A program made the translations under genes and the position numbers. Shown in pieces: positions 749 through 42,492 of a DNA stretch of 60,002 bases. The stretch's first letter is position 1. The number at the start of each line of letters is the position of its first letter. The DNA is from an uncultured Gemmatimonadaceae bacterium. GTDB lineage: Bacteria; Gemmatimonadota; Gemmatimonadetes; Longimicrobiales; Gaopeijiaceae. The stretch spans positions 4,047 to 64,048 of the forward strand of contig CAYPDV010000002.1 in the NCBI GenBank assembly GCA_964409525.1. The letters run 5' to 3'. Under the pieces are notes generated by a model, which saw only the letters and a program-made list of their open reading frames with translations, did not search any database and was not told where the DNA came from.

Positions 749-937
749 CGGGGGGTGCGCACGGCAGGGACCGCGCCACGGTGCGCGTCCTCCCCGCGCC
801 GAGACGTCCGGCCGCCGGGCGGTCGTCGGCAGTCCAGCGCGGTGGATCCGGGGGCGCCCGGGGGCTTCAGATGGCGCGGATCCTGCAGCCGGAGCGAGGT
901 CTCGCGGTGAGCTTCCTCCCACCTCCCCGGCTTCCGC

Positions 938-3331: not shown

Positions 3332-3334
3332 GCC

Positions 3335-3607
3335 GTGTGCCTGGGGATCCCCGGACGGGTCGAGGAGTTCGTCACCGACGACCGGCACATCGCCCGGGTG
3401 GACGTATCCGGCGTGCGTCGGAAGGTCAACGTCGCGCTCCTCCTGCCGGACGGGCTCGAGGTCGACGACTGGGTGCTCATCCACGTCGGCTTCGCCCTCT
3501 CGAAGATCGACGAGGAGGAAGCGGCGGAGACCTGGGCGTTTCTCGAGAGTCTCGGCGGCGAGCTCGACCAGGAGCTCGAGGACTTCACCGGGAGTGACAT
3601 CGGATGA
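3335..3607 (+). CDS. hypC: Hydrogenase assembly chaperone HypC/HupF
   Basis: 90 aa. Canonical N-terminus M-C-L-G-I-P-G-RV, then ...DDWVLIHVGFALSKIDEEEA. GTG start 3 nt after the hypF stop. Confidence 0.92.
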   Translation: MCLGIPGRVEEFVTDDRHIARVDVSGVRRKVNVALLLPDGLEVDDWVLIHVGFALSKIDEEEAAETWAFLESLGGELDQELEDFTGSDIG

Positions 3608-4149
3608 AGGGGTCGGAGCTCCAGGCGCTCGGACGCACCCGCTTCTCGGCCGTGGCCGAGGCCTCCGACGTCTTCTTCGACCGCGAGGCCGACCGCATCA
3701 GCACGGCGTGCCGCGACATGGCGCGCCGCTTCCATCGCGGCGGGCGACTCCTGGCCGTGGGTGAGGGCGCCGCGGGCCGCTCCGACGCCCGCCACGTGGC
3801 GGTGGAGTTCGTCCATCCGGTTCTCGTCGGCAAGCGCGCGCTTCCGGCGCTGGCGCTCGAGGCCCCGCAGAGCGGACCCCGGCGGCTCGCCACCCTCTCC
3901 GAGCCGGACGACATGCTGCTGGCGATGTCCGCCCGGGGCGCCGGCCGCCTGGACGCATGGACGGAGAAAGCGCGTGAGCGGGGCCTCCTCACGCTCGCGA
4001 CGCTCGGACGGGAGAGCCTCGAGGTCGACCACCTCTTCGTGGTGGCACACGACGATCCCACGGTCGTCCAGGAGGTCCACGAGACCCTCTACCACGTGCT
4101 CTGGGAGCTGGTGCACGTCTTCTTCGAGAACGAGAAGGTGCTCGCATGA
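3604..4149 (+). CDS. SIS-domain (GmhA/phosphoheptose-isomerase-like) protein, divergent copy
   Basis: 181 aa. GGRLLAVGEGAAGRSDARHVAVEFVHPVLVGKRALPALAL parallels the GmhA G-N-G-G-S-x-x-D-A-x-H...alPaiaL block but with substitutions. ATGA overlap with hypC. Confidence 0.7.
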   Translation: MKGSELQALGRTRFSAVAEASDVFFDREADRISTACRDMARRFHRGGRLLAVGEGAAGRSDARHVAVEFVHPVLVGKRALPALALEAPQSGPRRLATLSEPDDMLLAMSARGAGRLDAWTEKARERGLLTLATLGRESLEVDHLFVVAHDDPTVVQEVHETLYHVLWELVHVFFENEKVLA

Positions 4150-4451: not shown

Positions 4452-5190
4452 CCCCACCCGCGGCCTCTACCCCTTCCTGGACGACGAGCGCACCTCCTCG
4501 GCCGCCGTGGAGGAGAGGGTCCTGGCCGAGGTCCGCGAATCCACGCTCGCCAAGGCGCGCGCCGTGACCGCCCTCAGGGACGCCCTCTGGGCACGATCCG
4601 GGGAGGCCCTCTGCCGCGCGGCCGTGATGATGGCCAGCTCGTTCCGCGACGGCGGGAAGGTCCTCTCCTTCGGCAACGGGGGAAGCGCGACGGACGCCGA
4701 GGACCTGGTCGCCGACCTGCTCCATCCCCCGGACCCGGAGGCGGATTCCCTGCCGGCGCTCGACCTCGGCGCCGACCCCGCGATCCTGACGGCGCTGGCC
4801 AACGACATCGGCCCCGACCACGTCTTCCTCCGGCAGCTCGTCGCGTACGGCCGGGCCGGGGACGTGGCGGTCGGGTTCAGCACCAGCGGCCGGAGCGGAA
4901 GCGTGGTGGAGGCGCTCCGTGAGGCGGCTCGGCGGGGTCTCGGAACCCTCGCCTTCACCGGCTACGACGGGGGCGTGCTCCGCGACGCGAGCTGGCTCGA
5001 CGTCCTGGTGGTCGCACCGTCCCAGCACATCCCCCGGATCCAGGAGGCCCACGCCACCGCCTACCACACCCTCCTCGTCCTGGTGCGCCACCTCCTCGCT
5101 TCCGAGGCGCCCCGGTCGGGTCACTCGACGTCCGCACCTTCCGCATCGTCCCGGCCCGCCGGGACCTCCGCGCACCCCGGGCTCCGATGA
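4444..5190 (+). CDS. SIS-domain phosphoheptose-isomerase-like protein (GmhA family)
   Basis: In-frame GTG at 4444 within ORF 4180..5190 (VADPTRGLYPF...), overlapping the previous stop as GTGGCTGA. GGKVLSFGNGGSATDAEDLVADL..., GDVAVGFSTSGRSGSVVEAL and LAFTGYDGG are typical GmhA/SIS blocks. Confidence 0.8.
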   Translation: MADPTRGLYPFLDDERTSSAAVEERVLAEVRESTLAKARAVTALRDALWARSGEALCRAAVMMASSFRDGGKVLSFGNGGSATDAEDLVADLLHPPDPEADSLPALDLGADPAILTALANDIGPDHVFLRQLVAYGRAGDVAVGFSTSGRSGSVVEALREAARRGLGTLAFTGYDGGVLRDASWLDVLVVAPSQHIPRIQEAHATAYHTLLVLVRHLLASEAPRSGHSTSAPSASSRPAGTSAHPGLR

Positions 5191-6386
5191 AGCACCTCGA
5201 CGAGTACCGCGACCCGGTCGTCGCCCGGCGCCTCCTGGACCGGATCGCCGACCTCGCCGACGACGACGAGTTCAACCTCATGGAGGTCTGCGGGGGTCAC
5301 ACGTACACGATCTACCACCACGGGATCGACCAGCTCCTGCCCGACGGGGTGGAGCTGGTCCACGGCCCGGGGTGCCCCGTCTGCATCATGCCGATGGGGC
5401 GCGTGGACGACGCCCTCGACATCGCCCGGCGCGAGAACGTGCTCTTCACCACCTTCGGCGACATGATGCGGGTGCCGGGGAGCGAGGAGAGCCTGCTGGA
5501 CGCGAAGGCGCAGGGGGCCGAGGTCCGCTTCGTCTACTCCCCGCTCGACGCGCTCCGGATCGCGACGGAGAACCCCGACCGCGAGGTGGTCTTCTTCGCC
5601 GTCGGCTTCGAGACGACCGCCCCCTCGACGGCCGTGACGCTGCTCCGCGCACGGGAGGCCGGCATCGGCAACTTCTCGGTCTTCTGCAACCACGTCACGA
5701 TCCTGCCGGCGATCAAGGCGATCCTCGACTCGCCGGGGATGCTCCTCGACGGTTTCCTCGGCCCGGGCCACGTGTCCACGATCATCGGCACCGAGCCGTT
5801 CCGCTGGATCCCGGAGCGCTACGAGCGCCCGGTCGTCATCTCCGGCTTCGAGCCCCTCGACATCATCCACTCCGTGCTCATGCTCCTGGAGCAGCTCCGG
5901 GGCGGGCGACGCGAGGTCGAGAACCAGTACAAGCGCGTCGTGCGCCCGGAGGGGAACCCGAAGGCGGTCGAGGCGATCCACGAGACGATGGAGATGCGGC
6001 CGCAGTACGAGTGGCGGGGCCTCGGCTTCATCAGCGAGAGCGCGCTCCGGATCCGGGACGAGTTCGCCGACTGGGACGCGGAGCGGCGGTTCCCGGTCCC
6101 GGGGATCCGCGTGGCGGACCCCAAGGCGTGCCAGTGCGGCGAGGTCCTGAAGGGAGTCCTCAAGCCGTGGGAGTGCCGCGTCTTCGGAACCGAGTGCACC
6201 CCCGACGATCCGCTCGGAAGCCCGATGGTATCTTCCGAGGGCGCCTGCGCCGCGGCGTTCAAGTACGGCCGTCTCGGGCTGAGGGAGAAGGCCCGGGCGG
6301 AGCGCGACGGCGCTGCCCTGCCGATCGTGGGATCCAGGCCCGCGCCCGAGCCGGACCGGGAGCCACGGCCGGGGGAGGCACCGTGA
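5187..6386 (+). CDS. hypD: Hydrogenase maturation Fe-S protein HypD
   Basis: 399 aa. MKHLDEYRDP..., EVCGGHT, GPGCPVC and FETTAPS motifs. ATGA overlap with the upstream gene. Confidence 0.95.
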   Translation: MKHLDEYRDPVVARRLLDRIADLADDDEFNLMEVCGGHTYTIYHHGIDQLLPDGVELVHGPGCPVCIMPMGRVDDALDIARRENVLFTTFGDMMRVPGSEESLLDAKAQGAEVRFVYSPLDALRIATENPDREVVFFAVGFETTAPSTAVTLLRAREAGIGNFSVFCNHVTILPAIKAILDSPGMLLDGFLGPGHVSTIIGTEPFRWIPERYERPVVISGFEPLDIIHSVLMLLEQLRGGRREVENQYKRVVRPEGNPKAVEAIHETMEMRPQYEWRGLGFISESALRIRDEFADWDAERRFPVPGIRVADPKACQCGEVLKGVLKPWECRVFGTECTPDDPLGSPMVSSEGACAAAFKYGRLGLREKARAERDGAALPIVGSRPAPEPDREPRPGEAP

Positions 6387-7489
6387 GCGCGGAGAACGGC
6401 CGGGGCCTCTCCGAGGTCCTCCGGGAGATCGAGGAGGCGGAGCGGACCCGGCGCGAGGGGGGAAGCGCCTCCGTCGGGCCCCGGATCACGCTCAGCCACG
6501 GCTCGGGCGGGAGGGCGACCCAGAAGCTCATCGACGGACTTTTCCGCCCCCTTCTCGACGATCCCGTCCTCGGCCGGATGGACGACGCGGCCGTCCTCGA
6601 GCTGGACGGGATGGAGGCGCGGCTCGCCTTCACCACCGACTCCTTCGTCGTGCGGCCACTCTTCTTCCCGGGAGGCGACATCGGCTCCCTCGCGGTCCAC
6701 GGGACGGTGAACGACCTCGCCGTGGTCGGCGCACGCCCCCTCTTCGTCTCCGTGGGCCTGATCCTCGAGGAGGGGCTGGACACGGAGGTCCTCGAGCGGG
6801 TCGTGCGCTCGCTCGGCGAGGCGGCGGACCGGGCCGACGTCCGGGTGGTCGCCGGCGACACCAAGGTGGTGGAGAAAGGGAAGGGCGACGGCCTCTACCT
6901 GAACACGTCCGGGATCGGCGTGGTGCGCCCCGACGTCGAGCTCTCTCCGGCCGGTGCCCGCGCGGGCGACCGGATCCTCGTCTCCGGCTCGATCGGCGAG
7001 CACGGGGTCGCCGTCCTGCTCGCCCGGGAGGATCTGGCCCTCGAGTCGGACATCGTGAGCGACACGGCCCCGCTCAACGGCCTCACGCGGGTCCTCCTCG
7101 ACGAGGCGGGCGAGGGTGTGCGCTGTCTCCGGGACGCCACCCGGGGGGGCGTGGCCGCGGTCCTCAACGAGATCGCCCGCGCTTCGGGCGTCGCGGTGGA
7201 GCTGCACGAGGAGTCGATCCCGCTGCGGAGGGACGTGCGCGGCGCCTGCGAGCTGCTCGGGATCGACCCGCTGCACATGGCGAACGAGGGGCGGATGGTC
7301 GCGATCGTCTCGCCCGACCGCGCCGACCGGGCGCTGGAGGTCCTGCGCTCCCATCCCCTGGGAGAAGGCGCGCGGGAGATCGGCGTCGTCGGAGAAGATC
7401 CGCCGGGGACGGTGTACGTGCGGACGGCGCTCGGCGGGAGCCGGGTGCTGGACACGCTGGTCGGCGACGCGCTGCCCCGGATCTGCTGA
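6383..7489 (+). CDS. hypE: Hydrogenase maturation carbamoyl dehydratase HypE
   Basis: In-frame GTG at 6383 in ORF 4919..7489 (GTGA overlap with hypD). ITLSHGSGGRATQKLI and the AIR-synthase-like fold, with the diagnostic C-terminus ...GDALPRIC. The part of the ORF upstream of 6383 overlaps hypD and is an artefact. Confidence 0.95.
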   Translation: MSAENGRGLSEVLREIEEAERTRREGGSASVGPRITLSHGSGGRATQKLIDGLFRPLLDDPVLGRMDDAAVLELDGMEARLAFTTDSFVVRPLFFPGGDIGSLAVHGTVNDLAVVGARPLFVSVGLILEEGLDTEVLERVVRSLGEAADRADVRVVAGDTKVVEKGKGDGLYLNTSGIGVVRPDVELSPAGARAGDRILVSGSIGEHGVAVLLAREDLALESDIVSDTAPLNGLTRVLLDEAGEGVRCLRDATRGGVAAVLNEIARASGVAVELHEESIPLRRDVRGACELLGIDPLHMANEGRMVAIVSPDRADRALEVLRSHPLGEGAREIGVVGEDPPGTVYVRTALGGSRVLDTLVGDALPRIC

Positions 7490-7565: not shown

Positions 7566-8867
7566 ATGGCCCAGACGGACACGCCGGTCCCGGTCCAGGA
7601 GCGGGGCAGCGAGATCCCCCCCTCGGGGTCGCTCCACGCCACTTCGCAGGAGCGCCTCGAGCGGGCCCGGGAGAAGCCCCGCTCCGAGCTCCTGCCGGAA
7701 GGGCCGATCGACACGATCCACGTCTTCTGGCTCGCCGGTATGAGCTGCGACGGCTGCACCATCTCCACCGCCGGAGCGACGAACCCGAGCATCGAGGACC
7801 TCCTCAACGGGACGCTTCCCGGGCTTCCGAAGGTGGAGCTACACCACCCGGTGCTCTCCGTCGAGGCGGGCGACGAGTTCGTCCGCAACTACGAGATGGC
7901 GGTGGAGGGAGAGCTCGAGGCGCCGTACGTCGTGGTCTACGAGGGCTCGATCGCGGACGAGTCGATCGCCCAGCGTACGGGCGGATACTGGTCGGCCATG
8001 GGCGTGGAGGTGATGGACGGCAGTCCGCAGCCCCGGTCCACGGCCGGCTGGCTCGAGCGGATGGCCGAGGATGCGGCGGCCGTGATCGCCATCGGAACGT
8101 GCGCCACGTGGGGGGGGATCCCGGCGGCCGTGGGAAACCCCACCGGCGCGATGAGCGTGATGGACCTCCTCGGCGAGGACTTCCGGAGCGCCTTCGGGCT
8201 CCCGGTGGTGAACGTCCCCGGGTGCGCTCCGCTGGGCGACAACTTCACGGAGACGGTAGCCGCGATCCTCCTCTACCTGCAGGGGATCGGGCCGATTCCC
8301 GAGTTCGACTCCCTCGGCCGGCCCGCCTGGCTCTTCGAGGAGACGGTCCACCACGGCTGCACCCGGGCCGGATACTACGAGGAAGGCCTCTTCGCCGAGG
8401 AGTACGGGGACAAGGAGTGCCTGGTGGAGGTCGGCTGCTGGGGGCCGGTGGTCAACTGCAACATCGTGAAGAGGGGGGCCATCAACCACCACGGCGGATG
8501 CATGGAGGCCGGAGGCGTCTGCATCGGCTGCACGATGCCGGGCTTTCCCGACAAGTTCAGCCCCTTCTACAAGACCCCTCCCGGCTCCATGCTCTCGACC
8601 ATGGGATCGCGCACCCTGGGCTCGGTGGTCCGGCGCCTCCGCTCCCTGTCCAACGAGAACCTGAACCGCGAGCCCCGCTGGGACGCTGCGGATCACGTGC
8701 CCACCGGGTGGGACCGGGTCCGCGAGCCGGGGTGGTTCCGGGACGTGCTCCACTTCTTCTACGAGGTCTGGCAGTTCTGGGGCGTGAAGAAGCCCGGCCG
8801 GAAGGGAGACGACGTGGAGTACCCCCTGTCCCGGCCGGGCCGGGACGAGGACTACCCGCTCGAATGA
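7566..8867 (+). CDS. [NiFe]-hydrogenase small subunit, no Tat signal, with C-terminal extension (HhyS/HylS-like)
   Basis: 433 aa. Cluster-ligand blocks GMSCDGCTIS, IGTCATWGGIP, VPGCAPLGD, HHGCTRAGYYE, CLVEVGCWGPVVNCN and GGCMEAGGVCIGCTMPGFPDKF. The N-terminus has no RRxFxK twin-arginine motif. RBS GGAGGGGA lies before ATG 7566. Confidence 0.93.
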   Translation: MAQTDTPVPVQERGSEIPPSGSLHATSQERLERAREKPRSELLPEGPIDTIHVFWLAGMSCDGCTISTAGATNPSIEDLLNGTLPGLPKVELHHPVLSVEAGDEFVRNYEMAVEGELEAPYVVVYEGSIADESIAQRTGGYWSAMGVEVMDGSPQPRSTAGWLERMAEDAAAVIAIGTCATWGGIPAAVGNPTGAMSVMDLLGEDFRSAFGLPVVNVPGCAPLGDNFTETVAAILLYLQGIGPIPEFDSLGRPAWLFEETVHHGCTRAGYYEEGLFAEEYGDKECLVEVGCWGPVVNCNIVKRGAINHHGGCMEAGGVCIGCTMPGFPDKFSPFYKTPPGSMLSTMGSRTLGSVVRRLRSLSNENLNREPRWDAADHVPTGWDRVREPGWFRDVLHFFYEVWQFWGVKKPGRKGDDVEYPLSRPGRDEDYPLE

Positions 8868-8883: not shown

Positions 8884-9210
8884 GTGACCCCCTTCGAGGT
8901 CCCCGAGCTCTTCACCCGCTGGGAGTTCTGGTACGCGGTGGGAGGGGCGGTGGTCGTCGTCGCCGCGACCCTCCTCGTCGCGATCGTGCTCGTGGCGCGA
9001 AGCATCGACCGCGAGGCCCGACGGGCCCTGGAGGCGGTCCGGCGGATCCGCGGGAACACCGACGCGATCTGGGAGCTCGAGCCCGTCCTCCGCGACGTGG
9101 AAGCCGTCCATGGCCACGCCCGTGCGGTCGCCGAGGCGACCGACGGCCTGGCCAGGACCGTCCACGGGTCTCTCGGGGGCGCGGCGGCAGGATCGGAGGC
9201 GGAGCGATGA
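8884..9210 (+). CDS. Small single-pass membrane protein 1 of 5 between the hydrogenase subunit genes
   Basis: 108 aa. GTG start preceded by GAGGAGGA. One N-terminal hydrophobic helix (WYAVGGAVVVVAATLLVAIVLVA), then an Arg/Ala/Glu-rich helical tail. Stop overlaps the next start (ATGA). Confidence 0.7.
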   Translation: MTPFEVPELFTRWEFWYAVGGAVVVVAATLLVAIVLVARSIDREARRALEAVRRIRGNTDAIWELEPVLRDVEAVHGHARAVAEATDGLARTVHGSLGGAAAGSEAER

Positions 9211-9545
9211 CGGCCTGGATCGCGTCGATGGACGCCGAGACCCTCTGGTGGATCAGCCTCGGGGTCGGAGCGGTGGTGGCCGGTGTCGTCGCCCTCCTCC
9301 TCGCCTGGATCGTGCGCTCGGCCGACGCCATCCGTCGCACCGTGGCGGAGATATGGGTGCAGGGCCCCTACGTCGCGAACAACACCGCCCACCTGGACCT
9401 GCTCCGCCGCATCGGCGTCGCGGGAGACCGTGCCGTGCGGGAGGTGGGCCGGGCGAGCGACGCGGTGGGCCGCCTCCGGGAGCACGCGGCCGGATGCCCC
9501 GGCTGCCCCTGGTGCGTGACCGGCTGGGAGGGAGGGAGACGATGA
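9207..9545 (+). CDS. Small single-pass membrane protein 2 of 5, C-terminal CPGCPWC motif
   Basis: 112 aa. TM helix WWISLGVGAVVAGVVALLLAWIV, a helical tail, and a C-terminal GCPGCPWCVTGW. ATGA overlaps on both sides. Confidence 0.7.
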   Translation: MTAWIASMDAETLWWISLGVGAVVAGVVALLLAWIVRSADAIRRTVAEIWVQGPYVANNTAHLDLLRRIGVAGDRAVREVGRASDAVGRLREHAAGCPGCPWCVTGWEGGRR

Positions 9546-9868
9546 CGCTCCTCACGGTGCTCACCATCGTGCTCGTCCTCCTCCTGGTGGCGATCCTCGT
9601 GGTCGGCCTGCTCCGTATCATCGGCCTCCTCGAGGCGATCGGGGGCGGGCAGATCAGCTACATGGGCGAGAACATGGGCGACCGGATGAGCGGTCTCGCC
9701 AAGATCCGCTGGGGCCTCCGGGCCATCGAGCGACAGACGGGCTCCATCGGGCCCTCGACCCAGCAGGTGGACGGAGTGCTGGAGCGGATGGACGGCGGTC
9801 TGGCGGAGGTGGAGGAGGGGATGGACGCCCTCCTCTCCCACCTCGAGGCGCAGGGGGCGGGCCGATGA
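9542..9868 (+). CDS. Small single-pass membrane protein 3 of 5
   Basis: 108 aa from the in-frame ATG at 9542 of ORF 9110..9868. MTLLTVLTIVLVLLLVAILVVGLLRIIGLL TM helix, then a helical tail. ATGA overlaps on both sides. Confidence 0.7.
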   Translation: MTLLTVLTIVLVLLLVAILVVGLLRIIGLLEAIGGGQISYMGENMGDRMSGLAKIRWGLRAIERQTGSIGPSTQQVDGVLERMDGGLAEVEEGMDALLSHLEAQGAGR

Positions 9869-10230
9869 GCGTGCGCCTGACCGACTCGACGGCCGTCCTC
9901 GCCCTCTGGTGGATCGCCCTCGGACTGACGGTCCTCGTGATCGTCCCCCTCACGATCTATCTCCTGCATCGCACGCTGCGAGCGTCCCGCCAGATCCGGC
10001 GGCTCACGCACGAGGCGCTCGCGGCGGGCGGCGGGATCGCCGACCACGTGGGCTCGCTGGCCGCCCTGCGCGGCACCGTCGAGAAGGCGCGCGTGCTGCC
10101 GGACCACGGATCCCGGCTGGAGGAGCGGGCGGCTCGGCTCGAGGGGGTCCTCGCCGGGCGAAGGGGCGACGCCTCCGCCGAGGGCCCGGGGAGCCCGCCG
10201 GCCGGTCCCGCGTCAGGAGCGCTGCCATGA
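9865..10230 (+). CDS. Small single-pass membrane protein 4 of 5
   Basis: 121 aa. TM helix AVLALWWIALGLTVLVIVPLTIYLL, then a helical Arg/Ala-rich tail. ATGA overlaps on both sides. Confidence 0.7.
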   Translation: MSVRLTDSTAVLALWWIALGLTVLVIVPLTIYLLHRTLRASRQIRRLTHEALAAGGGIADHVGSLAALRGTVEKARVLPDHGSRLEERAARLEGVLAGRRGDASAEGPGSPPAGPASGALP

Positions 10231-10490
10231 TCCTCTACTGGTCGACCCTGGCGGTGATCGGGGCCGTGGTCCTGGTGCTCGCCGGCTACCTGATCGCCAT
10301 CGCGTGGACCCTCTGGATGGCGCGCGTCCACGTCCGGGACCTCGCCGACGGCCTGGAGCGGGTGGCGGAGCGCACCGACGGCGTCGACGTACCCGTGGCG
10401 GAGCTCCGGGACGTGATGTCCCGGACCGAGTCGTCCTTCGCGGCGGTCCGGAAGCACCTCGCCGCCGCCGCCACCACCTTCGAGCGCTGA
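10227..10490 (+). CDS. Small single-pass membrane protein 5 of 5
   Basis: 87 aa from the in-frame ATG at 10227 of ORF 9909..10490. MILYWSTLAVIGAVVLVLAGYLIAIAWTLW TM helix plus a helical tail. ATGA overlap with the previous ORF. Confidence 0.7.
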   Translation: MILYWSTLAVIGAVVLVLAGYLIAIAWTLWMARVHVRDLADGLERVAERTDGVDVPVAELRDVMSRTESSFAAVRKHLAAAATTFER

Positions 10491-10517: not shown

Positions 10518-12419
10518 ATGTGCTTCAAGAACCTTCCGATCGACTTCGACGAGAACGGCACCGCCACCCTCCGGGAGGCGATTCCGGATCCGTACACCCA
10601 GAAGGAGATCCGGCACAGCGCACCGAAGCAGCTCGACCGGGACCAGATCGAGGAGCTCCTGGCGAAGAACGGCTACATCGAAGCGAAGGACTTCGATCCG
10701 GTGACCCGCGTCGCCGGGGCCCTCGCCTTCCACACCGTCTGCGACCTCGAGAAGGGGGAGGTGCTCGAGGCCCGCTCCATGGGCACCCTCTTCCGGGGCT
10801 ACGAGATCATCGCCATGGGGCGGGACCCGCGGGACGCCATCTACATCACGAGCCGCGCATGCGGGGTCTGCGGCGGAGTGCACTCCACGTGCTCGGCGAT
10901 GGCGATCGAGATGGCCTTCGGGATCTCGCCACCCCCGCTGGGCATCGTGATCCGCAACATGGCGCTGGCCCTCGAGTTCCTCTACGACCACCCGCTCCAC
11001 CTCTTCCTGCTCGCCGGCCCCGACTACTCGGAGAAGGTCGTCCGGCAGACGAATCCGTCGTACTGGGACCGCGCGCAGGGGTGGTCGTGTCCCTCCTCGG
11101 AGCTCCACGGCTTCGACACCATGGCCGAGCTGATGACGGAGATGAATCCGCTCACCGGCAGCCTCTACCTCGAGGCGCTGCACATGACGCGGGTCACCCG
11201 GGAGGCCTACGCCCTCATCTGCGGCAAGTACCCGCACCCCCAGACCATCGTCCCCGGGGGGATGAGCACCACGGTCGACCCGACCGTGATGAACGAGGTC
11301 TACAACCGGCTCCGGAAGTTCTTCGACTACTCGCAGAAGGTGGTGGGGATCTGGGACGACCTCACCGAGTTCTTCTACGACATGGAGCCCCGGCAGCGGG
11401 AGGTCGGATCGCGGTCGAGGAACCTCGTCGACACCGGCATCTTCGACCACCACGAGGCGTACGACGCGAAGTACGAGAACGCCGGGACGTGGGGCCGGCG
11501 CCGCTGGCTCACGCCGGGCGTGATCGTCGACGGTGAGCTGGTGACCACCGACCTCCACCAGATCAACATGGGGGTCGAAGAGTTCGTGGAGCACTCCTTC
11601 TACGAGGAGTGGGGCTCGGAGCGTCATCCCACCGACTCCCTGGGCAACCCGCTGAGCCGCTACCATCCGTGGAACCAGGAGACCCGCCCGAAGCCGACCG
11701 GCCAGAACTGGCGGGAGAAGTACTCCTGGGCGAAGTCGCCCCGGTGGGACCGCCAGTCCATGGAGGCGGGCTCCTACGCCCGCCTCTGGACGACCGCGCT
11801 GGCGCAGGAGCACCCGGAGAGCCGGTACCTGGAGGCCACCGGGCACTCCCTCCGGATGCGGGTTCCCCGGGGCTCGCTTCCGGAGAGGGAGCTCGAATGG
11901 CACGTCCCCGAGAGCTGGAACGCCTTCGAGCGGAACCGGGCCCGGGCCTACTGCATCCCGGAGACCGCGCTGATCGCCCTGGCCAACTGGGAGATCGGCA
12001 TGGACCTGATGAAGCGCGGCGAGACGAAGGTGTCCACCCCCTTCGAGGTCCCGAAGAAGGGGCGGCAGGTGGGGGTCGGCTTCTGGGGGGCCGGCCGGGG
12101 CTGGCTCACGCACCACCTGGAGCTCCAGGACGGCAAGATCGCGAACTACCAGATCGTCACACCCTCCACCTGGAACGCCTCGCCGCAGGATCCGTGGGGA
12201 AACCCCGGCCCCTACGAGGAGGCCGTCCTCAACACGCCGATCCTGGAGGAGCGGGAGGAGAACGGGAGCGGGGGCGGCTCCTTCCGCGGAGTCGACATCC
12301 TGCGGACCATCCGGAGCTTCGATCCGTGCATGCCGTGCACCACGCACATGCACGTCGACGGCACGGACCGCGTGGTCACCACCGAGGTCAACACCTGTGC
12401 GTGCGGGGTGGAGGATTGA
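10518..12419 (+). CDS. [NiFe]-hydrogenase large (catalytic) subunit, group 1h/1l-like
   Basis: 633 aa. N-terminal DPVTRVAG. L1 motif TSRACGVCGGVHS (Cys codons at 10859 and 10868). C-terminal L2 motif SFDPCMPCTTH (Cys codons at 12327 and 12336), followed by a 23-aa tail (MHVDGTDRVVTTEVNTCACGVED) of the kind removed by the maturation endopeptidase. Confidence 0.95.
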   Translation: MCFKNLPIDFDENGTATLREAIPDPYTQKEIRHSAPKQLDRDQIEELLAKNGYIEAKDFDPVTRVAGALAFHTVCDLEKGEVLEARSMGTLFRGYEIIAMGRDPRDAIYITSRACGVCGGVHSTCSAMAIEMAFGISPPPLGIVIRNMALALEFLYDHPLHLFLLAGPDYSEKVVRQTNPSYWDRAQGWSCPSSELHGFDTMAELMTEMNPLTGSLYLEALHMTRVTREAYALICGKYPHPQTIVPGGMSTTVDPTVMNEVYNRLRKFFDYSQKVVGIWDDLTEFFYDMEPRQREVGSRSRNLVDTGIFDHHEAYDAKYENAGTWGRRRWLTPGVIVDGELVTTDLHQINMGVEEFVEHSFYEEWGSERHPTDSLGNPLSRYHPWNQETRPKPTGQNWREKYSWAKSPRWDRQSMEAGSYARLWTTALAQEHPESRYLEATGHSLRMRVPRGSLPERELEWHVPESWNAFERNRARAYCIPETALIALANWEIGMDLMKRGETKVSTPFEVPKKGRQVGVGFWGAGRGWLTHHLELQDGKIANYQIVTPSTWNASPQDPWGNPGPYEEAVLNTPILEEREENGSGGGSFRGVDILRTIRSFDPCMPCTTHMHVDGTDRVVTTEVNTCACGVED

Positions 12420-12444: not shown

Positions 12445-13080
12445 GTGAGACCGCTCCGGGTGGATCCGGCGAACGCCGCCGGACCCCGCGTCCTGGTGGG
12501 CGGCGTCGGCTACTCCTTCCTCCGCGACTTCTCGGTGGGCCCGGTGCTCTCCGGTGAGCTCGTGGAGGAGTCGTGGCCCGCCGGGGTGGTGGTGGAGGAC
12601 CTCCACTACGGACCCGTGGCCGTCGCGCAGCGCCTCATGGAGGAGAGCCCCTCCTTCGATCGGGTCGTCGTGTTCGGGGCGGTCCGGCGCGGGCGTCCGG
12701 CCGGCACCGTCCACGCCTACCGGTGGAGCGGAGAGCTCCCCGACGAGGAGGAGCTCCAGGCCCGGGTGTCGGAGGCGGTGACCGGCGTGGTGGGCCTGGA
12801 CAACCTCGTCCTCGTCACGGCGGCTCTGGACACGCTTCCCGGCGAGGTGGCCGTGGTGGAGGTCGAGCCCGCGGTGGAGGAGGCGGGCGAGGAGTTCAGC
12901 CCGGCGGTCGCGGAGTCCCTCGAGCGGATCCGCGCCCGGGTGCGGGAGGCCGCCGGGACGGGGTTCCACCGGTTGCCGGTGGAGCCCCTCGCCGGGGACG
13001 CGGGGGAGACCGCGCCTCGCCGCGGCCCGGGTTCGAGCGCGGAGTCCGAGACGGAGACCGTGGGCGAGGTGGGGGCATGA
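12445..13080 (+). CDS. Degenerate hydrogenase-maturation-protease-like protein (probable pseudo-protease or chaperone)
   Basis: Layout RVLVGGVGYSFLRDFSVGPVL ... FDRVVVFGAVRRG ... parallels the HybD/HupD blocks (vLvlGiGN..DDg.G ... d.vilvDA). The acidic/His metal-ligand positions are replaced. Preferred start is GTG 12445 after GAAGGGGGG. The track ORF starts at 12397, overlapping the large subunit. Confidence 0.6.
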   Translation: MRPLRVDPANAAGPRVLVGGVGYSFLRDFSVGPVLSGELVEESWPAGVVVEDLHYGPVAVAQRLMEESPSFDRVVVFGAVRRGRPAGTVHAYRWSGELPDEEELQARVSEAVTGVVGLDNLVLVTAALDTLPGEVAVVEVEPAVEEAGEEFSPAVAESLERIRARVREAAGTGFHRLPVEPLAGDAGETAPRRGPGSSAESETETVGEVGA

Positions 13081-13805
13081 CCTCTCCCGATCTCGAGGAG
13101 GTGGTGGCCCGCCTGGACCGCATGGTGGCCGAGGCCGAGGCGCACGACGACCCCCGGATCCGGGAGTGGGCGTCGGGAATGGTCGAGTCGCTGGCCCGGC
13201 TCCACGGGGAGGGCCTCCGGCGCCTCACGGCGCTCCTTGTCGGGCATGGCGAGCTCCTCCGGCAGGCTCTGGAGGACCCGGTGGTGGCGAACCTCCTCCT
13301 GCTTCACGACGCCACGATCGGAGAGGAGGGGAGGAGCGTGGTGGAGGTGACGGAGCGGACCTCGGGGGCAGGGGAGGGTGCGGGGCCGGCCTCCTTCCGG
13401 GTCCGGATGGACGACGGGGCGGCGGCCTCCTTCGTGCCGCTCGAGAAGGTGCAGCGACTCGATCGGAAGCTGAGGAACGGGACGGCGGGGCCGGCCCCCT
13501 CCCGTAGGGTGGCGGCAGGACACGTCGCCGAGGTGGAGCCGGGCTCCCTGCGGGGGATCCTCGAGGACGGCGCCGCGATCCTTCTCGCGCGGGTGGGCGA
13601 TTCCCTACGGGCGTACCGCAACGCCTGTCCCGGCTCCATCCTCCCGCTCCACCTCGGGGCCCGGGACGGCGACGTGGTGCGCTGCCCCTGGCACGGGTGC
13701 CGCTTCCACCTGGACGACGGGTCCGCGGTCGAGGGACAGGGGCCGGGCCTGGACCCCCTTCCCGTGGAGGTGAAGGGCGACGAGGTCTGGGTGGTGGTTC
13801 GATGA
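13077..13805 (+). CDS. Hydrogenase-associated protein with C-terminal Rieske-like [2Fe-2S] domain (HhyE/HylE-like)
   Basis: 242 aa from the in-frame ATG 13077 of ORF 12573..13805 (ATGA overlap). The C-terminus has CPGSILPLH ...17 aa... CPWHGCRFHLDDG. The second Rieske box is canonical and the first lacks the usual C-x-H histidine. The N-terminal about 80 aa are a helical domain. Confidence 0.75.
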   Translation: MTSPDLEEVVARLDRMVAEAEAHDDPRIREWASGMVESLARLHGEGLRRLTALLVGHGELLRQALEDPVVANLLLLHDATIGEEGRSVVEVTERTSGAGEGAGPASFRVRMDDGAAASFVPLEKVQRLDRKLRNGTAGPAPSRRVAAGHVAEVEPGSLRGILEDGAAILLARVGDSLRAYRNACPGSILPLHLGARDGDVVRCPWHGCRFHLDDGSAVEGQGPGLDPLPVEVKGDEVWVVVR

Positions 13806-14311
13806 GCCCCCCCGCAGCGGGCCCGGTCTCCGCGACCCGCACGCTCGTCGCGGGAATGGGAAACGTCCTGGAGGAGGACGACGGCTTCGGCGTGCGAGTG
13901 CTCGAGGCTCTGGCCCACGAGGAGCTCCCGGAAGGCGTGCGGCTGACGGAGGTCGGCACCGGAGGGATCCACCTCGTCCAGGACCTGATGGACGGCTACG
14001 ACGCGCTGATCCTGGTGGACGCGGTGGACCGGGAGGGCGAGCCGGGAACCGTCTATACGCTCCGGCCGGAGGTGCCGGATCTGGACGACTTCGACGAGGA
14101 CGAGCGCGGCCGGTTCCTGGCCGACACGCACTACACCGTGCCGGCCAAGGTCCTGGTGATGGCACAGGCCTTGGGAATCCTTCCCGAACGGCTCTACATT
14201 GTGGGGTGCCAGCCGGGAAGGACGGAGCTCGGGCTCGACCTGACCGAGAGGGTCGACCGGGCGGTGGGGCGGGGGGTCGCCGAGGTCCGGCGGCTGCTGG
14301 AGTGCCATTGA
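13802..14311 (+). CDS. [NiFe]-hydrogenase maturation endopeptidase (HybD/HupD family)
   Basis: 169 aa from ATG 13802 (ATGA overlap). TLVAGMGNVLEEDDGFGVRV, ALILVDAVDREGEPGTVY and LADTHYTVPAKVL are the canonical blocks, including the Glu/Asp, Asp and His metal ligands. Confidence 0.9.
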   Translation: MSPPAAGPVSATRTLVAGMGNVLEEDDGFGVRVLEALAHEELPEGVRLTEVGTGGIHLVQDLMDGYDALILVDAVDREGEPGTVYTLRPEVPDLDDFDEDERGRFLADTHYTVPAKVLVMAQALGILPERLYIVGCQPGRTELGLDLTERVDRAVGRGVAEVRRLLECH

Positions 14312-14369: not shown

Positions 14370-14963
14370 ATGAACCCGACAGGCACGCCGAGCGCTCCGG
14401 AAACACCGGAGCCCGGAAGCACTCGGGGCCGATCCGGGGGAGGAAGGGGCTGGACCGCCTTCCGGGTGGCGCTGGCCCTCTCCGCCCTCTGGCTCACGGG
14501 GTACGTCGCCTTCCGGTACTCCGTCTTCAACGCGCCGGACCACGGCACGGCGTACTTCTACATCTTCCCCGCCTCCCTGGTGCTGGCGGCGGTGGCCCTG
14601 GTGCTCGCCTTCCGTCCCTTCCTCCTCTCGCGGATGCCGGGGATCGGCGGGACGGCCCTCCGGGGCACCCTCACCGCCTACGGGGCCGTCTGGATGGCGA
14701 GCGGTGTCGCCTGCACCCTCTCCCTCCTGGAGGGGATCGCGATCGCCCCCCTCGGAGGGAGCATCGACATGATCCACATGGTCAGCGATCACGTCTTCCT
14801 CCCCCTCGCGGTCGCGACGCTGGCCTGGGCGCCGGGATGGCTCGCCGCGAGGCTCGGGGCGAGCTCCGCGGTGCGCGAGGCCGCCAGAAGCGCGGGACGG
14901 CCGGGCGCCCGGATGCCCGGCTCCCCGGTCGCCGGGAAGACGGGAGGCTCGATCCGTGGCTGA
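14370..14963 (+). CDS. Hypothetical integral membrane protein (about 4 TM), hydrogenase-cluster associated
   Basis: 197 aa. RBS GGAGGAG before the ATG. Four hydrophobic segments, with His residues in APDHG and DMIHMVSDH. No recognisable family. Confidence 0.6.
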   Translation: MNPTGTPSAPETPEPGSTRGRSGGGRGWTAFRVALALSALWLTGYVAFRYSVFNAPDHGTAYFYIFPASLVLAAVALVLAFRPFLLSRMPGIGGTALRGTLTAYGAVWMASGVACTLSLLEGIAIAPLGGSIDMIHMVSDHVFLPLAVATLAWAPGWLAARLGASSAVREAARSAGRPGARMPGSPVAGKTGGSIRG

Positions 14964-15381
14964 GGGGATCGCCGGGGGGGCTCCCGACGTGCCTGACGGA
15001 ACCTCGGGCTCGGACGCCGGGCTCCGCCGCCGGGACGAGGTCCTCCAGATCCTCTTCTGGATGCGGGGGGAGGGGCTGGGTGACAGCACCACTCCGGCGG
15101 ACCTCCTGCCCCTCCTGGGCGAGGGAGCGGCCGAGCTGGAGACGACGCTCCACGCCCTGCGGGAGATGGGCCTCGTCGAGCGTACGGAGGACGAGCGGTA
15201 CCGGCTGACGGACAGGGGGGTCGCCGAGGGCGGCCGCCGGTTCGCGGACGAGTTCAGCGGCCTCACCGCCCAGGCTCACGGCGAGTGCGCCGATCCGGAC
15301 TGCGACTGTCACGACGATCCCGCCGCCGCGATCGACTGTCTGGCCCGACGCCACGGCCACGACGCCCACACCCCCGCCTGA
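14956..15381 (+). CDS. Winged-helix (MarR/DtxR-like fold) protein with Cys/His-rich C-terminal tail
   Basis: 141 aa. GTG start overlaps the previous stop by 8 nt. LQILFWMRGEGLGDS...LHALREMGLVERTEDERYRLTDRG looks like a wHTH. The tail HGECADPDCDCHDDP...RRHGHDAH is metal-ligand-rich. Confidence 0.6.
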   Translation: MAEGIAGGAPDVPDGTSGSDAGLRRRDEVLQILFWMRGEGLGDSTTPADLLPLLGEGAAELETTLHALREMGLVERTEDERYRLTDRGVAEGGRRFADEFSGLTAQAHGECADPDCDCHDDPAAAIDCLARRHGHDAHTPA

Positions 15382-15411: not shown

Positions 15412-16194
15412 ATGCACGTGGCCATCGCGGGAAAGGGAGGGACCGGAAAGACCACCCTGTCGGCCATCCTCTGCCGGACGCTGGCCCGACAGGGGCGGGG
15501 CGTCCTGGCCGTGGACGCCGACTCGAATCCGAACCTGGCGGCGGTGCTCGGCTTCGAGCGCGTCGCCGATCTGCCCGAAGGGCTCCCCCGGAGCCTCCTC
15601 GAGCGGGTCGAGGAGCCGGACGGGACCACCCGGCTGGCCCTGACCCGGCCGGTGGGCGAGGTGCTGGAGGAGTACGGCCGCACGGGCCCGGACGGGGTGC
15701 GGCTGATGGTGATGGAGGCCGTCGGCCACGGGGGCGGCGGGTGAATGTGCTCCGCCCACGCCGCGGTCCGCGGCTTCGTCGGAGAGATCGTCTCGGCGCC
15801 GGAGGCCGTCGGTGACGTCGTGCTCGACATGGAGGCCGGGCTCGAGCACCTGAGCCGGGGCACCGGGCGGCACGTGGACGCCGTCGTCGCCGTCCTCGAG
15901 CCCTACTACCGCGCCCTGGAGACGGGCCGGCGGGTCGTCGAGCTCGCGCGCGAGCTCGGGATCCGCCATACCTTCGGAGTCGCGAACAAGGTGCGGGGAG
16001 GCCCCGACCGCGAGGCGCTGGAGGAGTTCGCGGAGCGCCACGAGCTCACCCTGCTGGGCGAGGTCCCCTGGGACGAGACCCTCCTGGAGGCGGAGCGGGC
16101 CGGCAGCGCACCGGTGGACCACGCGCCGGACGCGCCGGCCGTGCGGGCGGTGCGGCAGGTGACGGAGCGCCTGCAGGAGCGGATCGAGGCGTGA
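15412..16194 (+). CDS. CooC-type (MinD/ParA-class) Ni-insertion ATPase with one in-frame TGA at the CxC metal site: candidate selenoprotein, otherwise a split gene or pseudogene
   Basis: ORFs 15412..15744 and 15745..16194 are in the same frame, separated only by TGA 15742-15744. Deviant Walker A AIAGKGGTGKTT. VLDMEAGLEHLSRGT and VANKVR blocks align with the CODH accessory protein CooC. The TGA falls where CooC has the first Cys of G-G-x-x-C-x-C; here the sequence is GGGG-[TGA]-M-C-SAH. Confidence 0.8.
15750..15784 (+). other. SECIS-like extended hairpin immediately downstream of the in-frame UGA
   Basis: Lower stem CUCCG (15750-15754) pairs with CGGAG (15780-15784). A 5x5 internal loop follows. 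Upper stem GCCGCG (15760-15765) pairs with CGCGGC (15769-15774). The apical sequence GGUC lies 24-27 nt from the U of the UGA. Confidence 0.45.
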
Positions 16195-16263
16195 GCGACC
16201 GGATCGAGGCGTGAGGTGCCGGCCCGCGCGGACCGAGACGAGACCCGAAACACGGAGCGAGGA

Positions 16264-17115
16264 ATGAGCGACGTACGCACGGCGACCGGAGCGTCCCTCG
16301 GGGGGGCGGGCATCCTGGCGGTCTGTTCCTGCGGAGCGGCCACCGGCACGGTGGGCCTCCTCGGCGTGGCGGGGATCGCCGCGACGAACCCCGTGGTCCA
16401 CCCCTTCTTCCTCGGAGTCGGGGCCGTGCTCCTCGTCTGGGGGCTCTGGCAGATCAGCCGGAAGGCCGCCGTCCTCGCCGCCGGGGGGCTCGCCCTCATC
16501 GCCGGCGGCGCGCTCCTGGCCCCCGCGTCGGTGATGACGCAGGCCGGGATCCCGCATCCACCCGGGCACATGGCCGGATTCGCGCTCTACGTCCTCGGCG
16601 CGGCGGCGATCGTGCTCGGCTTCCTCCGGGCGTACCGTCCGCCCGAAGGAAGCAGAGGCGGATACACCGCGGCCGCGGGCATGGGGCTCGCCGCCGGGTG
16701 CAGCTGTTGCCTGGTGACCGGCTCGGTGGCCGGCATCCTCGGCACCTTCGGCCTCGGGATGCCCTGGATCTACTCCGAGCCCGTCATCTTCACGACGGCG
16801 ATGGGGCTCGTGACCTATGGCCTCGTGCGTCTCGGGGGTTGGCGCGCCGCATGGCCCGTCCCGGTCGGAGCCCTCGTCCTCTGGGGTGGCCCCCGGGTGC
16901 TCCGCGCCCTCGCGGAGGAGATCCCCTTCCACGGCGTGAACCTCCGCTTCATCCCGGCCTATCTGGTGACGCTCGCCGGCATCGGGCTCGTCCTCTGGTC
17001 CTTTCCGCGGGCCTATCGTGCCGCACGGGCCGCGCGTGAAGCCGCCCCACCGGCCGAGCCACCCGCGCCGCCGGCGGCGCCCCCGGTCCTCGAGGGAGCG
17101 GGCACGGCCGTCTGA
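16264..17115 (+). CDS. Integral membrane protein with intramembrane CSC / CSCC motifs (putative thiophilic-metal permease)
   Basis: 283 aa from ATG 16264 (RBS GGAGCGAGGA); the track ORF starts at 16216. About 8 TM segments with an internal duplication. AGILAVCSCGAATGTVGLLGV and GLAAGCSCCLVTGSVAGILG recall MerT/MerC-style Cys pairs inside TM helices. The C-terminal tail is Pro/Ala-rich. Confidence 0.65.
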   Translation: MSDVRTATGASLGGAGILAVCSCGAATGTVGLLGVAGIAATNPVVHPFFLGVGAVLLVWGLWQISRKAAVLAAGGLALIAGGALLAPASVMTQAGIPHPPGHMAGFALYVLGAAAIVLGFLRAYRPPEGSRGGYTAAAGMGLAAGCSCCLVTGSVAGILGTFGLGMPWIYSEPVIFTTAMGLVTYGLVRLGGWRAAWPVPVGALVLWGGPRVLRALAEEIPFHGVNLRFIPAYLVTLAGIGLVLWSFPRAYRAARAAREAAPPAEPPAPPAAPPVLEGAGTAV

Positions 17116-38978: not shown

Positions 38979-40130
38979 TCAGCGCCCCTCGGCGAGCTCG
39001 CCCAGCTCCTGGGCGCGGCGGATCCAACCCGCCACGTCGCTCCCGGAGATGATCCCTTGGAGCTCGCCGTCCGCGACGACCAGCACCCGCCGGGTTCCCG
39101 AGCCCTGCATCTTCTCGAGCACCTCGGTCATCGGCTCCTCCGCGCGCACCGTCAGCTCGTCGCGCCGTGACTCCATCACGTCCCGGACGGGCGTCCGGTC
39201 CCACTCCCCTCGTGGAGCCTCCTTCACGTGATCGAGCGTGACCAGGCCCACCAGCCGTTCGCCCTCGACCACCGGGAAGGACTGGTATCGGCTCCGGAGG
39301 AAGTGCTCGTCCACGAGCTTCCGTAGCGGGAGGTCGGGGGCGACCGTCTCCGGGTGCGCCGACATCACGTCCCGAGCGCGCACCCCGTCGAGGACGTGGC
39401 GGAGGAGGTGTTGGCGTAGCGACATCTCCGCCGCGCTCCTCAGGAACCAGCCGATGAAGACCAGCCAGAGCCCCCCGATCACGGCCCCTCCGAACATCTG
39501 GAGGATGCCGAGCCCCATGAGCCCGTAGCCGAACCACTTCCCGCCGCTCGAGGCCCAGCGGGTGGCCTTCGTCAGGTCGCCGGTGCGCTTCCAGACGAGC
39601 GCCCGGAAGAGCCGCCCCCCGTCGAGAGGGAATCCCGGGAGCAGGTTGAAGACCGCGAGCACGATGTTGATGACGCCCAGGTACCAGGCGATCCGCACCA
39701 CCCCTTCTCCCGCTCCGATCTGGCCGGCCAGCCACGCGAGACCGAGGAAGGCGCCGCCCAGCACCACGCTCGTGAGCGGTCCGATGCCGGCGATCTGGAG
39801 CTCGTCGTCCGGGGTTTCCGACTCGAGGCGGGTCCGGGCGATGCCCCCGAAGATGAACAGCGTGATCCCCTCCACGGGGATCCCCTTGGAGCGGGCCACC
39901 ACGGAGTGGGAGAGCTCGTGCGCGAGGAGCGAGGCGAAGAAGAGCACCGTCCCGACGCCCCCCATTACGAGGTAGGCGCCCGTGGAGCGCTCCGGAAGCT
40001 CCGCCGGGAAGACCCCGAAGGCGAGCGACCAGAAGATCAGGAAGAAGATCACGAACCACGAATAGTCGATCCGGATCTCGAACCCGAGGACGGATCCCAG
40101 CGGGAAGCTGCTCCCGGCGCTTCCGATCAA
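38979..40130 (-). CDS. Site-2 (M50) metalloprotease with C-terminal CBS pair
   Basis: HELSH zinc motif, NLLPGFPLDGG, multiple TM helices and two CBS repeats. TTG 40130 is the proposed start (uncertain), overlapping the mltA stop. Confidence 0.82.
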   Translation of the reverse strand: MIGSAGSSFPLGSVLGFEIRIDYSWFVIFFLIFWSLAFGVFPAELPERSTGAYLVMGGVGTVLFFASLLAHELSHSVVARSKGIPVEGITLFIFGGIARTRLESETPDDELQIAGIGPLTSVVLGGAFLGLAWLAGQIGAGEGVVRIAWYLGVINIVLAVFNLLPGFPLDGGRLFRALVWKRTGDLTKATRWASSGGKWFGYGLMGLGILQMFGGAVIGGLWLVFIGWFLRSAAEMSLRQHLLRHVLDGVRARDVMSAHPETVAPDLPLRKLVDEHFLRSRYQSFPVVEGERLVGLVTLDHVKEAPRGEWDRTPVRDVMESRRDELTVRAEEPMTEVLEKMQGSGTRRVLVVADGELQGIISGSDVAGWIRRAQELGELAEGR

Positions 40131-41422: not shown

Positions 41423-41428
41423 GTCCCG

Positions 41429-42340: not shown

Positions 42341-42492
42341 GTCTGGGGCGGCTCTCCCCTGAGAGTATCTGGAAGTCGCTCCGGACGAGCGAGTCCGGGC
42401 CTCCTAGCGTACCGTCGAGACGGGGCATAGATCCGGCGGCCCCGCTCTTGCGCGTTCTCGTGGGGAATCCGGATACACCGCGAGGAGGCACG

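Follow-up and report, generated by a model that had tools for sequence, protein, structure and literature searches.

CooC1 of C. hydrogenoformans is the ATP-dependent nickel-insertion factor of the Ni,Fe-CO dehydrogenase, and its Cys-x-Cys is a metal-chelating motif at the dimer interface (PMC3792862). The comparable protein of [NiFe]-hydrogenases, HypB, is a nickel metallochaperone driven by nucleoside triphosphates, which also has a dimer-interface Cys metal site and acts on the hydrogenase large subunit (PMC3792862). Selenoproteins of prokaryotes were inventoried in a review of May 2026, which presents 119 families and subfamilies with domain identifiers and selenocysteine (Sec) motifs; the entry that comes closest is a GTPase related to CobW, which has a UxxC motif. 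Here we describe a CooC-type ATPase gene interrupted by a single in-frame UGA, located at positions 15412-16194 of a 60,002-nt stretch of DNA from an uncultured Gemmatimonadaceae bacterium (assembly GCA_964409525.1, contig CAYPDV010000002.1, positions 4,047 to 64,048 of the forward strand). This whole stretch is referred to below as the window.

We propose that 15412-16194 is one intact gene, whose UGA at 15742-15744 would be recoded to Sec via the bacterial SelB/tRNA-Sec pathway. The stem-loop at 15760-15774 would direct this recoding, and the product would be a 260-aa CooC-type ATPase with a Sec-x-Cys in place of the Cys-x-Cys of the dimer-interface metal site. We estimate the probability of SelB-dependent recoding of the UGA with Sec in a CooC-type ATPase at roughly 0.85. 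The features concerned, including the candidate bacterial Sec insertion sequence (bSECIS), are the following.

15412..16194, plus strand: CooC-type P-loop ATPase gene with one in-frame UGA, MinD/ParA-class, PF01656
15430..15453, plus strand: deviant Walker A motif or P-loop, GKGGTGKT in translation (residues 7-14), aligning to GKGGVGKT of CooC1
15742..15744, plus strand: UGA codon, predicted selenocysteine U111, first Cys of the Cys-x-Cys site, aligned to CooC1 Cys112
15760..15774, plus strand: bSECIS-type upper stem-loop, 6-bp GCCGCG/CGCGGC with loop GUC, 21 nt after the UGA, dG -9.5 kcal/mol
15749..15785, plus strand: extended hairpin with lower stem 15750-15754/15780-15784, dG -18.5

The first-pass annotation had claimed a single reading frame broken only by this TGA, and translation bears this out: the open reading frames (ORFs) 15412..15744 and 15745..16194 are in one frame, TGA 15742-15744 is the sole interruption and the joined product is 260 aa long. 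A GGGAG Shine-Dalgarno-like motif is found about 8 nt 5' of the ATG at 15412. The GC-content at third codon positions (GC3) reaches 0.91 in the first half of the gene and 0.95 in the second, which is the strong third-position bias of real genes in this DNA; the GC-content is 70-75% throughout the window. TGA had also been described as the ordinary stop elsewhere in the window and, indeed, it terminates 29 of the 34 GC3-supported ORFs. Two further pairs of ORFs separated by an in-frame TGA were rejected as candidates: 911-3331 and 3332-3607 are the ordinary neighboring genes hypF and hypC, and 41429-42403 and 40127-41428 are unrelated adjacent genes, the second ORF of this pair beginning with a lipoprotein signal. 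At the end of the ATPase gene, a 16-nt direct repeat (cggatcgaggcgtgag) is present at 16180-16195 and 16200-16215, 20 nt apart. The repeat spans the true stop codon (TGA 16192-16194) and looks as if the 3' end of the gene had undergone a small tandem duplication.

For homology searches with the joined product, a Cys was placed at the position of the stop. The protein matched PF01656 (CbiA/MinD class), with other matches to ParA and MinD, and did not match PF02492 or a HypB model, the domains of CobW/HypB-type GTPases. In NCBIfam release 20, no model reached its cut-off for the joined product and there is no model for the family. The best match of solved structure was CooC1 (3kje, E=1.7e-30, residues 1-231), and MinD proteins followed at about 1e-9. 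The HMMER alignment places the TGA on Cys112 of CooC1 and Cys113 on Cys114 (respectively, GGGG-U-M-C and GGSQ-C-Y-C; the U-M-C motif corresponds to 15742-15750), exactly where the first-pass annotation had put the first Cys of the CooC motif. Judging from the translated sequence, the protein presents the MinD-class fold, the deviant Walker A and the closest similarity to CooC1 that define CooC (COG3640), and the metal site of CooC is predicted to be present as U111-M-C113 in place of C112-Y-C114. A search of 5.8 billion predicted proteins yielded full-length homologs of about 260 aa, which are at most 64% identical to the window protein. All of them (119/119) present an invariant C-x-C-x-x-H at the aligned position. 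Many of these Cys forms originate from Gemmatimonadota, and JGI names the homologs "CO dehydrogenase maturation factor".

We searched for the in-frame TGA in other genomes using the degenerate pattern H-x-G-x-G-TGA-x-C-x-A-H-x-x-x-R, which yielded at least 119 loci in a collection of species-representative genomes. Family membership was defined by an in-frame P-loop upstream and a D..AG.EH motif downstream. At least about 90 of the 119 listed loci are true family members with a TGA at the exact same codon, each in a different species representative, and 29 were rejected as chance matches in unrelated sequence. The cultured isolates among the pattern matches (Variovorax, Streptomyces, Sphingomonas, Saccharomonospora, Cupriavidus, Alcanivorax and Lachnoclostridium) were likewise chance matches outside the family. 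The carriers of the TGA form span at least 10 phyla. Among the matches listed, they belong to Gemmatimonadota (about 31), Acidobacteriota (about 28), Chloroflexota (about 9), Actinomycetota (about 8, mainly Rubrobacterales), Methylomirabilota/Rokubacteria (5), Myxococcota/"Deltaproteobacteria" (3) and Planctomycetota (2), with one carrier each in Verrucomicrobia, Fervidibacter and Entotheonella and three that are unclassified.

A second scan was conducted on metagenome contigs, allowing TGA, TGC or TGT at the codon. It identified 88 family members, 84 of which present TGA, three TGC and one TGT. Cys forms are not disfavored by this pattern, which fits 86 of the 119 Cys-form proteins and all seven Cys-form genes that were fetched independently. 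Together, the genomes (about 90) and the metagenome contigs (84) provide at least about 174 orthologs from independent assemblies with TGA at this codon. The in-frame TGA is thus widespread, being present in well over a hundred species of uncultured bacteria from soil. Using a Cys-form protein as tblastn query, we found TGA opposite its Cys113 in 181 loci. The comparison of this codon among orthologs, which the first-pass annotation had proposed, therefore has a clear outcome: TGA in at least about 174 assemblies of at least 10 phyla, and Cys in the full-length homologs.

These results bear directly on the possibility of a sequencing or assembly error, or of a recent TGC-to-TGA nonsense mutation that would make the gene a pseudogene in one genome. 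Such a change requires a single base, and the source is probably a metagenome-assembled contig. However, the same TGA occupies the same codon in at least about 174 diverged orthologs, which come from independent assemblies and represent at least 10 phyla. In each of three of the closest relatives (72-73% amino acid identity over the full length), this TGA is the single internal stop. Decay in close relatives had been considered as well, and they present no other internal stops or frameshifts, so that the gene is not a pseudogene. GC3 remains high on both sides of the codon (0.91-0.95), and the downstream hairpin covaries. The identities of the related loci (40-73%) rule out a single contaminating sequence. 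Because the TGA recurs in more than 170 diverged genes, we regard an error or a private nonsense mutation as excluded for practical purposes.

The stop codons that end these orthologous genes are TGA in 82 cases, TAG in 50 and TAA in 29 (n=161). UGA is thus not generally reassigned, because the same genes end in TGA (82/161) and TGA is also the main stop of the window. A rough neighbor-joining tree of 264 sequences shows Sec and Cys forms interleaved, with at least 23 switches between them. Such interleaving of Sec and Cys forms is the usual pattern in selenoprotein families.

A pattern-free search with the C-terminal half of the window protein returned mostly shortened gene calls. Among the 113 nearest matches, 110 are ORFs of 143-162 aa that start with MC.AH, having been called from the ATG directly 3' of the TGA. 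NCBI names these split ORFs "hypothetical protein" and JGI names them "CO dehydrogenase maturation factor". It could be argued that the gene is truly split: the UGA would terminate translation, a 110-aa P-loop half and a 149-aa half would assemble, and the hairpin would couple termination to reinitiation. The ATG that directly follows the TGA in the window fits this scenario, as does the output of gene callers, which is a pair of ORFs in every public record. The first-pass annotation had raised a split gene with reinitiation as an alternative that would destroy the CxC site. It is made very unlikely by the orthologs, since a start codon (ATG, GTG or TTG) follows the TGA in only 61 of the 174 listed; the next codon is Leu CTN in 108 and another codon in five (GCG, AAC, AAG). 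The residues after the TGA are nevertheless conserved, including positions not imposed by the search pattern (the Val G25/T26 is invariant). With 113 of 174 listed orthologs lacking a start codon and the following residues conserved, translation therefore passes through the UGA. A split would moreover destroy a metal site that is invariant in the Cys forms, and the geometry of the hairpin is that of a SECIS element.

We further analyzed the hairpin that would direct the recoding of the UGA to Sec. In the bSECIS model, the apical loop is 3-9 nt long, the upper stem has 4-16 bp and the spacing from the UGA is 16-37 nt; a G is expected within the first two loop positions, followed by G or U, and the minimum free energy is at most -7.5 kcal/mol (PMC13188914, Fig. 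2A). The window element at 15760-15774 falls within all these published bounds (loop of 3 nt, 6 bp, spacing of 21 nt, -9.5 kcal/mol). Its upper stem pairs 15760-15765 with 15769-15774, and the GUC loop (15766-15768) is a Val codon. The GGUC that had been noted about 24-27 nt from the U of the UGA is indeed present at 15765-15768 (+24..+27).

Covariation was assessed on 120 distinct 48-nt segments starting from the UGA and aligned without gaps. The stem columns 16-24/28-36 are paired in 73.6% of cases, relative to 25-45% when the 3' arm is slid. We observed 72 double-change cells in the stem against 24.9 +/- 4.2 in shuffles, and none of 500 shuffles reached the observed value. For instance, pair 22-30 is found as A-U (68), G-C (28), C-G (3) and U-A (2), and pair 21-31 as C-G (81) and U-A (19). 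Different clades present different versions of the hairpin: GCCACG-GUC-CGUGGC, CACGCCAC-CGUGC-GUGGCGUG, AUGCUGC-CGUGC-GCAGCAU and AUGCCGC-GGU-GCGGCAU, the window version being GCCGCG-GUC-CGCGGC. The register of the stem and the size of the loop vary between clades (GUC, CGUGC, GGU), and the G-U of the conserved Val codon always falls within the loop, at a distance of about 25 nt from the U of the UGA.

The stem also separates the TGA forms from the Cys forms. Among 160 TGA forms, 147 have an uninterrupted stem of 5 bp or more around the Val-GU loop, compared with two of 11 Cys forms (P = 5.6e-7; Mann-Whitney test). In addition, all TGA forms with Thr (ACN) at codon +7 use the rare Arg codon CGT at +9 (87/87), a combination absent from the Cys forms (0/4). 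This codon choice indicates selection on the RNA. The overall folding energy of the region does not differ between Sec and Cys forms; only the specific stem distinguishes them. The lower stem was rejected as a feature of the family: it is paired in 59.8% of cases against 60.3% in the slid control, its double changes remain within the range of the shuffles, and it thus has no support from covariation. Of the SECIS-like hairpin first placed at 15750-15784, the conserved part is therefore the upper stem-loop. Conservation of the hairpin among TGA-carrying orthologs, another comparison that had been proposed, was found and includes compensatory changes; most Cys forms lack the hairpin.

Several observations weigh against this interpretation or parts of it. 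For the 60 nt that follow the UGA, the folding energy is -20.5 kcal/mol, while dinucleotide shuffles average -22.8 (z=+0.91), and 165 of 200 shuffles fold as stably as the hairpin region of the window, which is 72% GC. A Cys-form homolog folds better over the same stretch (-30.9). RNA folding, which the first-pass annotation had suggested as a check, thus gave a mixed answer: the region is not more stable than its shuffles, and the element at 15760-15774 agrees with the bSECIS model. Rfam, searched at gathering and at permissive thresholds, returned no SECIS or other family and only insignificant matches to microRNAs and internal ribosome entry sites. ARAGORN did not find tRNA-Sec in the window or in 60 loci, and the window contains no tRNA gene. 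Using SelA, SelB and SelD of E. coli as tblastn queries, we did not find selA, selB or selD in the window and about 250 loci (about 1.3 Mb); two GTPases that matched the SelB query were rejected, as they are EF-G-like proteins of about 750 aa. In the literature searched, the Sec trait is not recorded for Gemmatimonadota, the phylum of the window; the PEP carboxylase encoded in the window likewise has its closest matches (62-67%) among proteins of Gemmatimonadota/Longimicrobiales. Every genome carrying the TGA form among the matches listed is a metagenome-assembled genome (MAG), so there is no experimental handle. Finally, the nickel-insertion role comes from homology and synteny only, and hypA and hypB could be encoded elsewhere in the genome. 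We conclude that single-sequence folding is uninformative here and that the hairpin is significant through the comparative data only; taken by itself, the window would be as compatible with a nonsense mutation as with a selenoprotein.

The same hairpin and SelB could also serve to insert Cys, at least in some lineages, through a Cys-charged tRNA-Sec-like tRNA (selC*/tRNA-ReC). In that case, the product would be a normal CooC-like ATPase with Cys-x-Cys, and the unusual feature would be the way in which it is made. DNA cannot distinguish Sec from Cys at a UGA, and tRNA-ReC has been reported in uncultured bacteria, where it was screened alongside Sec-type hydrogenases in overlapping phyla (PMC13582414). 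However, Cys insertion via tRNA-ReC is rarer than canonical Sec decoding, and the recurrent exchange of TGA and TGC together with the dominance of TGA is easier to explain by a selective advantage of Sec. The use of Sec in several of the host phyla also argues against Cys insertion: Rubrobacter, Chloroflexi and Acidobacteria are documented to have selenoproteins or selABCD (PMC1794560), and so are MAGs of Acidobacteriota, Chloroflexota and Methylomirabilota (PMC13582414; PMC13188914). We consider Cys insertion unlikely and infer that the inserted residue is Sec.

The surroundings of the ATPase gene suggest what the predicted selenoprotein might do. The neighboring genes in the window are listed below.

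911-3331, plus strand: hypF
3338-3607, plus strand: hypC
3604-4149 and ~4500-5190, plus strand: two SIS-domain (GmhA-like) genes, inserted in the hyp set
5187-6386, plus strand: hypD
6482-7489, plus strand: hypE
7566-8867, plus strand: [NiFe]-hydrogenase small subunit
8884-10490, plus strand: five short ORFs
10518-12419, plus strand: [NiFe]-hydrogenase large subunit, ending with DPCMPCTTH and an extension
~13053-13805, plus strand: Rieske/NifU-like protein
13697-14311, plus strand: HycI/HupD-type maturation endopeptidase
15070..15381, plus strand: Cys/His-rich partner gene directly upstream of the ATPase gene (ORF 14956-15381, start uncertain)

The HycI/HupD protease is followed by a membrane protein, a 126-141-aa ORF and then the ATPase gene. 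The partner ORF encodes a winged-helix-like N-terminal domain (weak match to PF13463) and an invariant C-terminal motif, GHGEC.DP.CDCH......C; with this Cys/His motif, the partner, which has no assigned family, is probably a metal-binding partner of the ATPase. Among the TGA-form loci listed, 70 have the partner ORF next to the ATPase gene and 67 have HycI nearby; the small subunit gene is in the neighborhood in 53 and the large subunit gene in 49. Canonical hypA and hypB were not found in the 60-kb window and were found in a single locus (L100) of about 250, with hypE found in 15. The window and 50-70 loci present [NiFe]-hydrogenase and hyp genes without CO dehydrogenase neighbors, so that no association with cooS/acsA was observed, and the Pfam-annotated neighborhoods of Cys forms likewise contained no CO dehydrogenase. 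The first description of the gene as a CooC-type nickel-insertion ATPase therefore holds for the type of ATPase, but its genomic context is that of [NiFe]-hydrogenase and not of CO dehydrogenase clusters.

The published layout of group 1l hydrogenases comprises HylS, five transmembrane ORFs, HylL, the Rieske protein HylE, HupD and "conserved ORFs with no predicted function" (bioRxiv 10.1101/2020.08.06.239558). The gene order of the window matches this layout, and the same layout is found in Cys-form loci, including L245 and L247. By synteny, the cluster of the window is a putative group-1l-type [NiFe]-hydrogenase cluster. The ATPase and the adjacent Cys/His-rich small protein most likely form an ATP-driven nickel-insertion module with the role that HypB/HypA play elsewhere. 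This role is suggested because of the homology to CooC, the synteny with hydrogenase genes and the absence of hypA/hypB from the window and nearly all loci. As far as sequence comparison can indicate, the metal handled would be nickel and the protein would mature the neighboring hydrogenase.

It is conceivable, more tentatively, that the maturation of the high-affinity group 1l hydrogenases, with which dominant soil phyla oxidize atmospheric H2, depends on selenium, that selenium supply gates the amount of active hydrogenase, and that Sec-x-Cys provides an oxygen-robust and faster hand-off of nickel. The gating by selenium supply is suggested because the nickel-insertion ATPase would be a selenoprotein in most carriers. 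It would operate through UGA read-through versus termination, and aerobes would need the oxygen-robust hand-off.

Several additional observations were made on these loci. Downstream of the ATPase gene, the product of 16216-17115 is a polytopic membrane protein that has no Pfam match and contains several pairs of Cys (CSCG, GCSCC); its homologs follow the ATPase gene in about 10 loci. This protein could transport or otherwise handle metal as part of the same module. The closest named relative of the window gene is a TGA form with 73% identity in a Gemmatimonadetes MAG (L249; GCA_019347995.1, 188-7158), which presents a different arrangement. There, the ATPase gene is immediately preceded by a PAS/GAF histidine kinase gene, and the locus also includes a short ORF of 163 aa that resembles a small subunit, a large subunit of 615 aa and an ORF of 158 aa. 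This hydrogenase locus could be of the sensor type or could have been rearranged.

Some of these hydrogenase loci also contain a second CooC-like paralog, whose in-frame TGA is at another position and whose motif is G-C-[PG]-U-C-G-[LIV]-S-P-[EG]-Q-L-L-G. It was located as follows, and tblastn also flags L129, L002 and L081.

L074:5954, plus strand: second paralog
L120:5549, plus strand: second paralog
L189:3888, plus strand: second paralog
L234:2359, minus strand: second paralog

On the 3' side of its TGA, the second paralog has a conserved hairpin of its own (CCGAGC-AGUU-GCUCGG), variants of which present G.U pairs or compensatory changes. The paralog may represent a second Sec-containing subfamily, which would suggest that Sec was recruited more than once by this chaperone system.

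The first-pass annotation stated that CooC is not among the described selenoprotein families, and this agrees with the May 2026 inventory, whose 119 families include no CooC, MinD, ParA or CbiA ATPase and no hydrogenase-maturation factor. The family is not mentioned in the deep-Sep paper and its supplementary family list, nor in the main text of BSepDB. Literature searches on CooC and selenoproteins, on Gemmatimonadota and selenocysteine, and on CooC in atmospheric-H2 hydrogenases returned nothing relevant. Within the literature searched, this is an undescribed family of bacterial selenoprotein with a SECIS inside the ORF, and the mechanism itself is already known.

If the interpretation is correct, this new selenoprotein family would be abundant in soil lineages of Gemmatimonadota, Acidobacteriota, Chloroflexota, Rubrobacterales and Methylomirabilota, phyla in which the use of selenium has been little explored. 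According to the sources checked, no selenoprotein of the MinD/CooC ATPase class and no hydrogenase-maturation factor with Sec would have preceded it. Selenium would be linked to the machinery of atmospheric H2 oxidation, a globally important trace-gas sink, and these clusters would be suggested to use a CooC-type ATPase and a Cys/His-rich partner instead of HypB/HypA. There are also consequences for annotation: at least 110 public gene calls split the gene in two, as do probably many of the 1479 matches to the C-terminal half, and such split calls distort annotation, completeness estimates and metabolic inference.

Among known systems, the closest is CooC1 (PDB 3KJE/3KJG/3KJH/3KJI), which shares with the window protein the GKGGxGKT deviant Walker A, the DxD switch and the DM(E/G)AGxEH motif, and whose metal-chelating Cys-x-Cys aligns exactly with U111-M-C113. 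The two proteins are about 30% identical. In contrast to CooC1, the first Cys of the window protein is encoded by UGA, its family has an extra invariant His (C-x-C-x-x-H), and the gene is located in a [NiFe]-hydrogenase cluster with no CO dehydrogenase nearby. HypB/HypA, the canonical nickel-insertion pair of [NiFe]-hydrogenases, would have the same role as the one proposed for the window ATPase, which is encoded with hypCDEF; unlike HypB, this ATPase belongs to PF01656 (CbiA/MinD class) and not to the G3E GTPases, and it has a predicted Sec. The "ATPase-type HypB" of Thermococcus is of the Mrp/MinD type. The CobW-related GTPase, a predicted Sec-containing metallochaperone of the NTPase type, provides a precedent for Sec in the metal motif of a chaperone, but it differs in fold class (G3E versus MinD/CooC), in motif (UxxC versus UxC) and in pathway.

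The recoding element compares with the bSECIS consensus of the E. coli fdhF type (Zhang and Gladyshev model, PMC13188914) in lying within the ORF immediately 3' of the UGA, and in its small apical loop beginning with G then U, its GC-rich upper stem of 6 bp and its spacing of 21 nt. It has no sequence similarity to the fdhF SECIS, and the G-U of its loop doubles as the first two bases of the conserved Val codon. Sec-type hydrogenase variants are known from MAGs of Acidobacteriota, Chloroflexota and Methylomirabilota (PMC13582414). The window system resembles the [NiFeSe] hydrogenases in that a Sec would stand in place of a nickel-binding Cys within a hydrogenase system. In the [NiFeSe] hydrogenases, Sec is a nickel ligand in the large subunit. 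In contrast, the large subunit of the window keeps its Cys (DPCMPC), and the predicted Sec is found in the maturation ATPase rather than in the enzyme.

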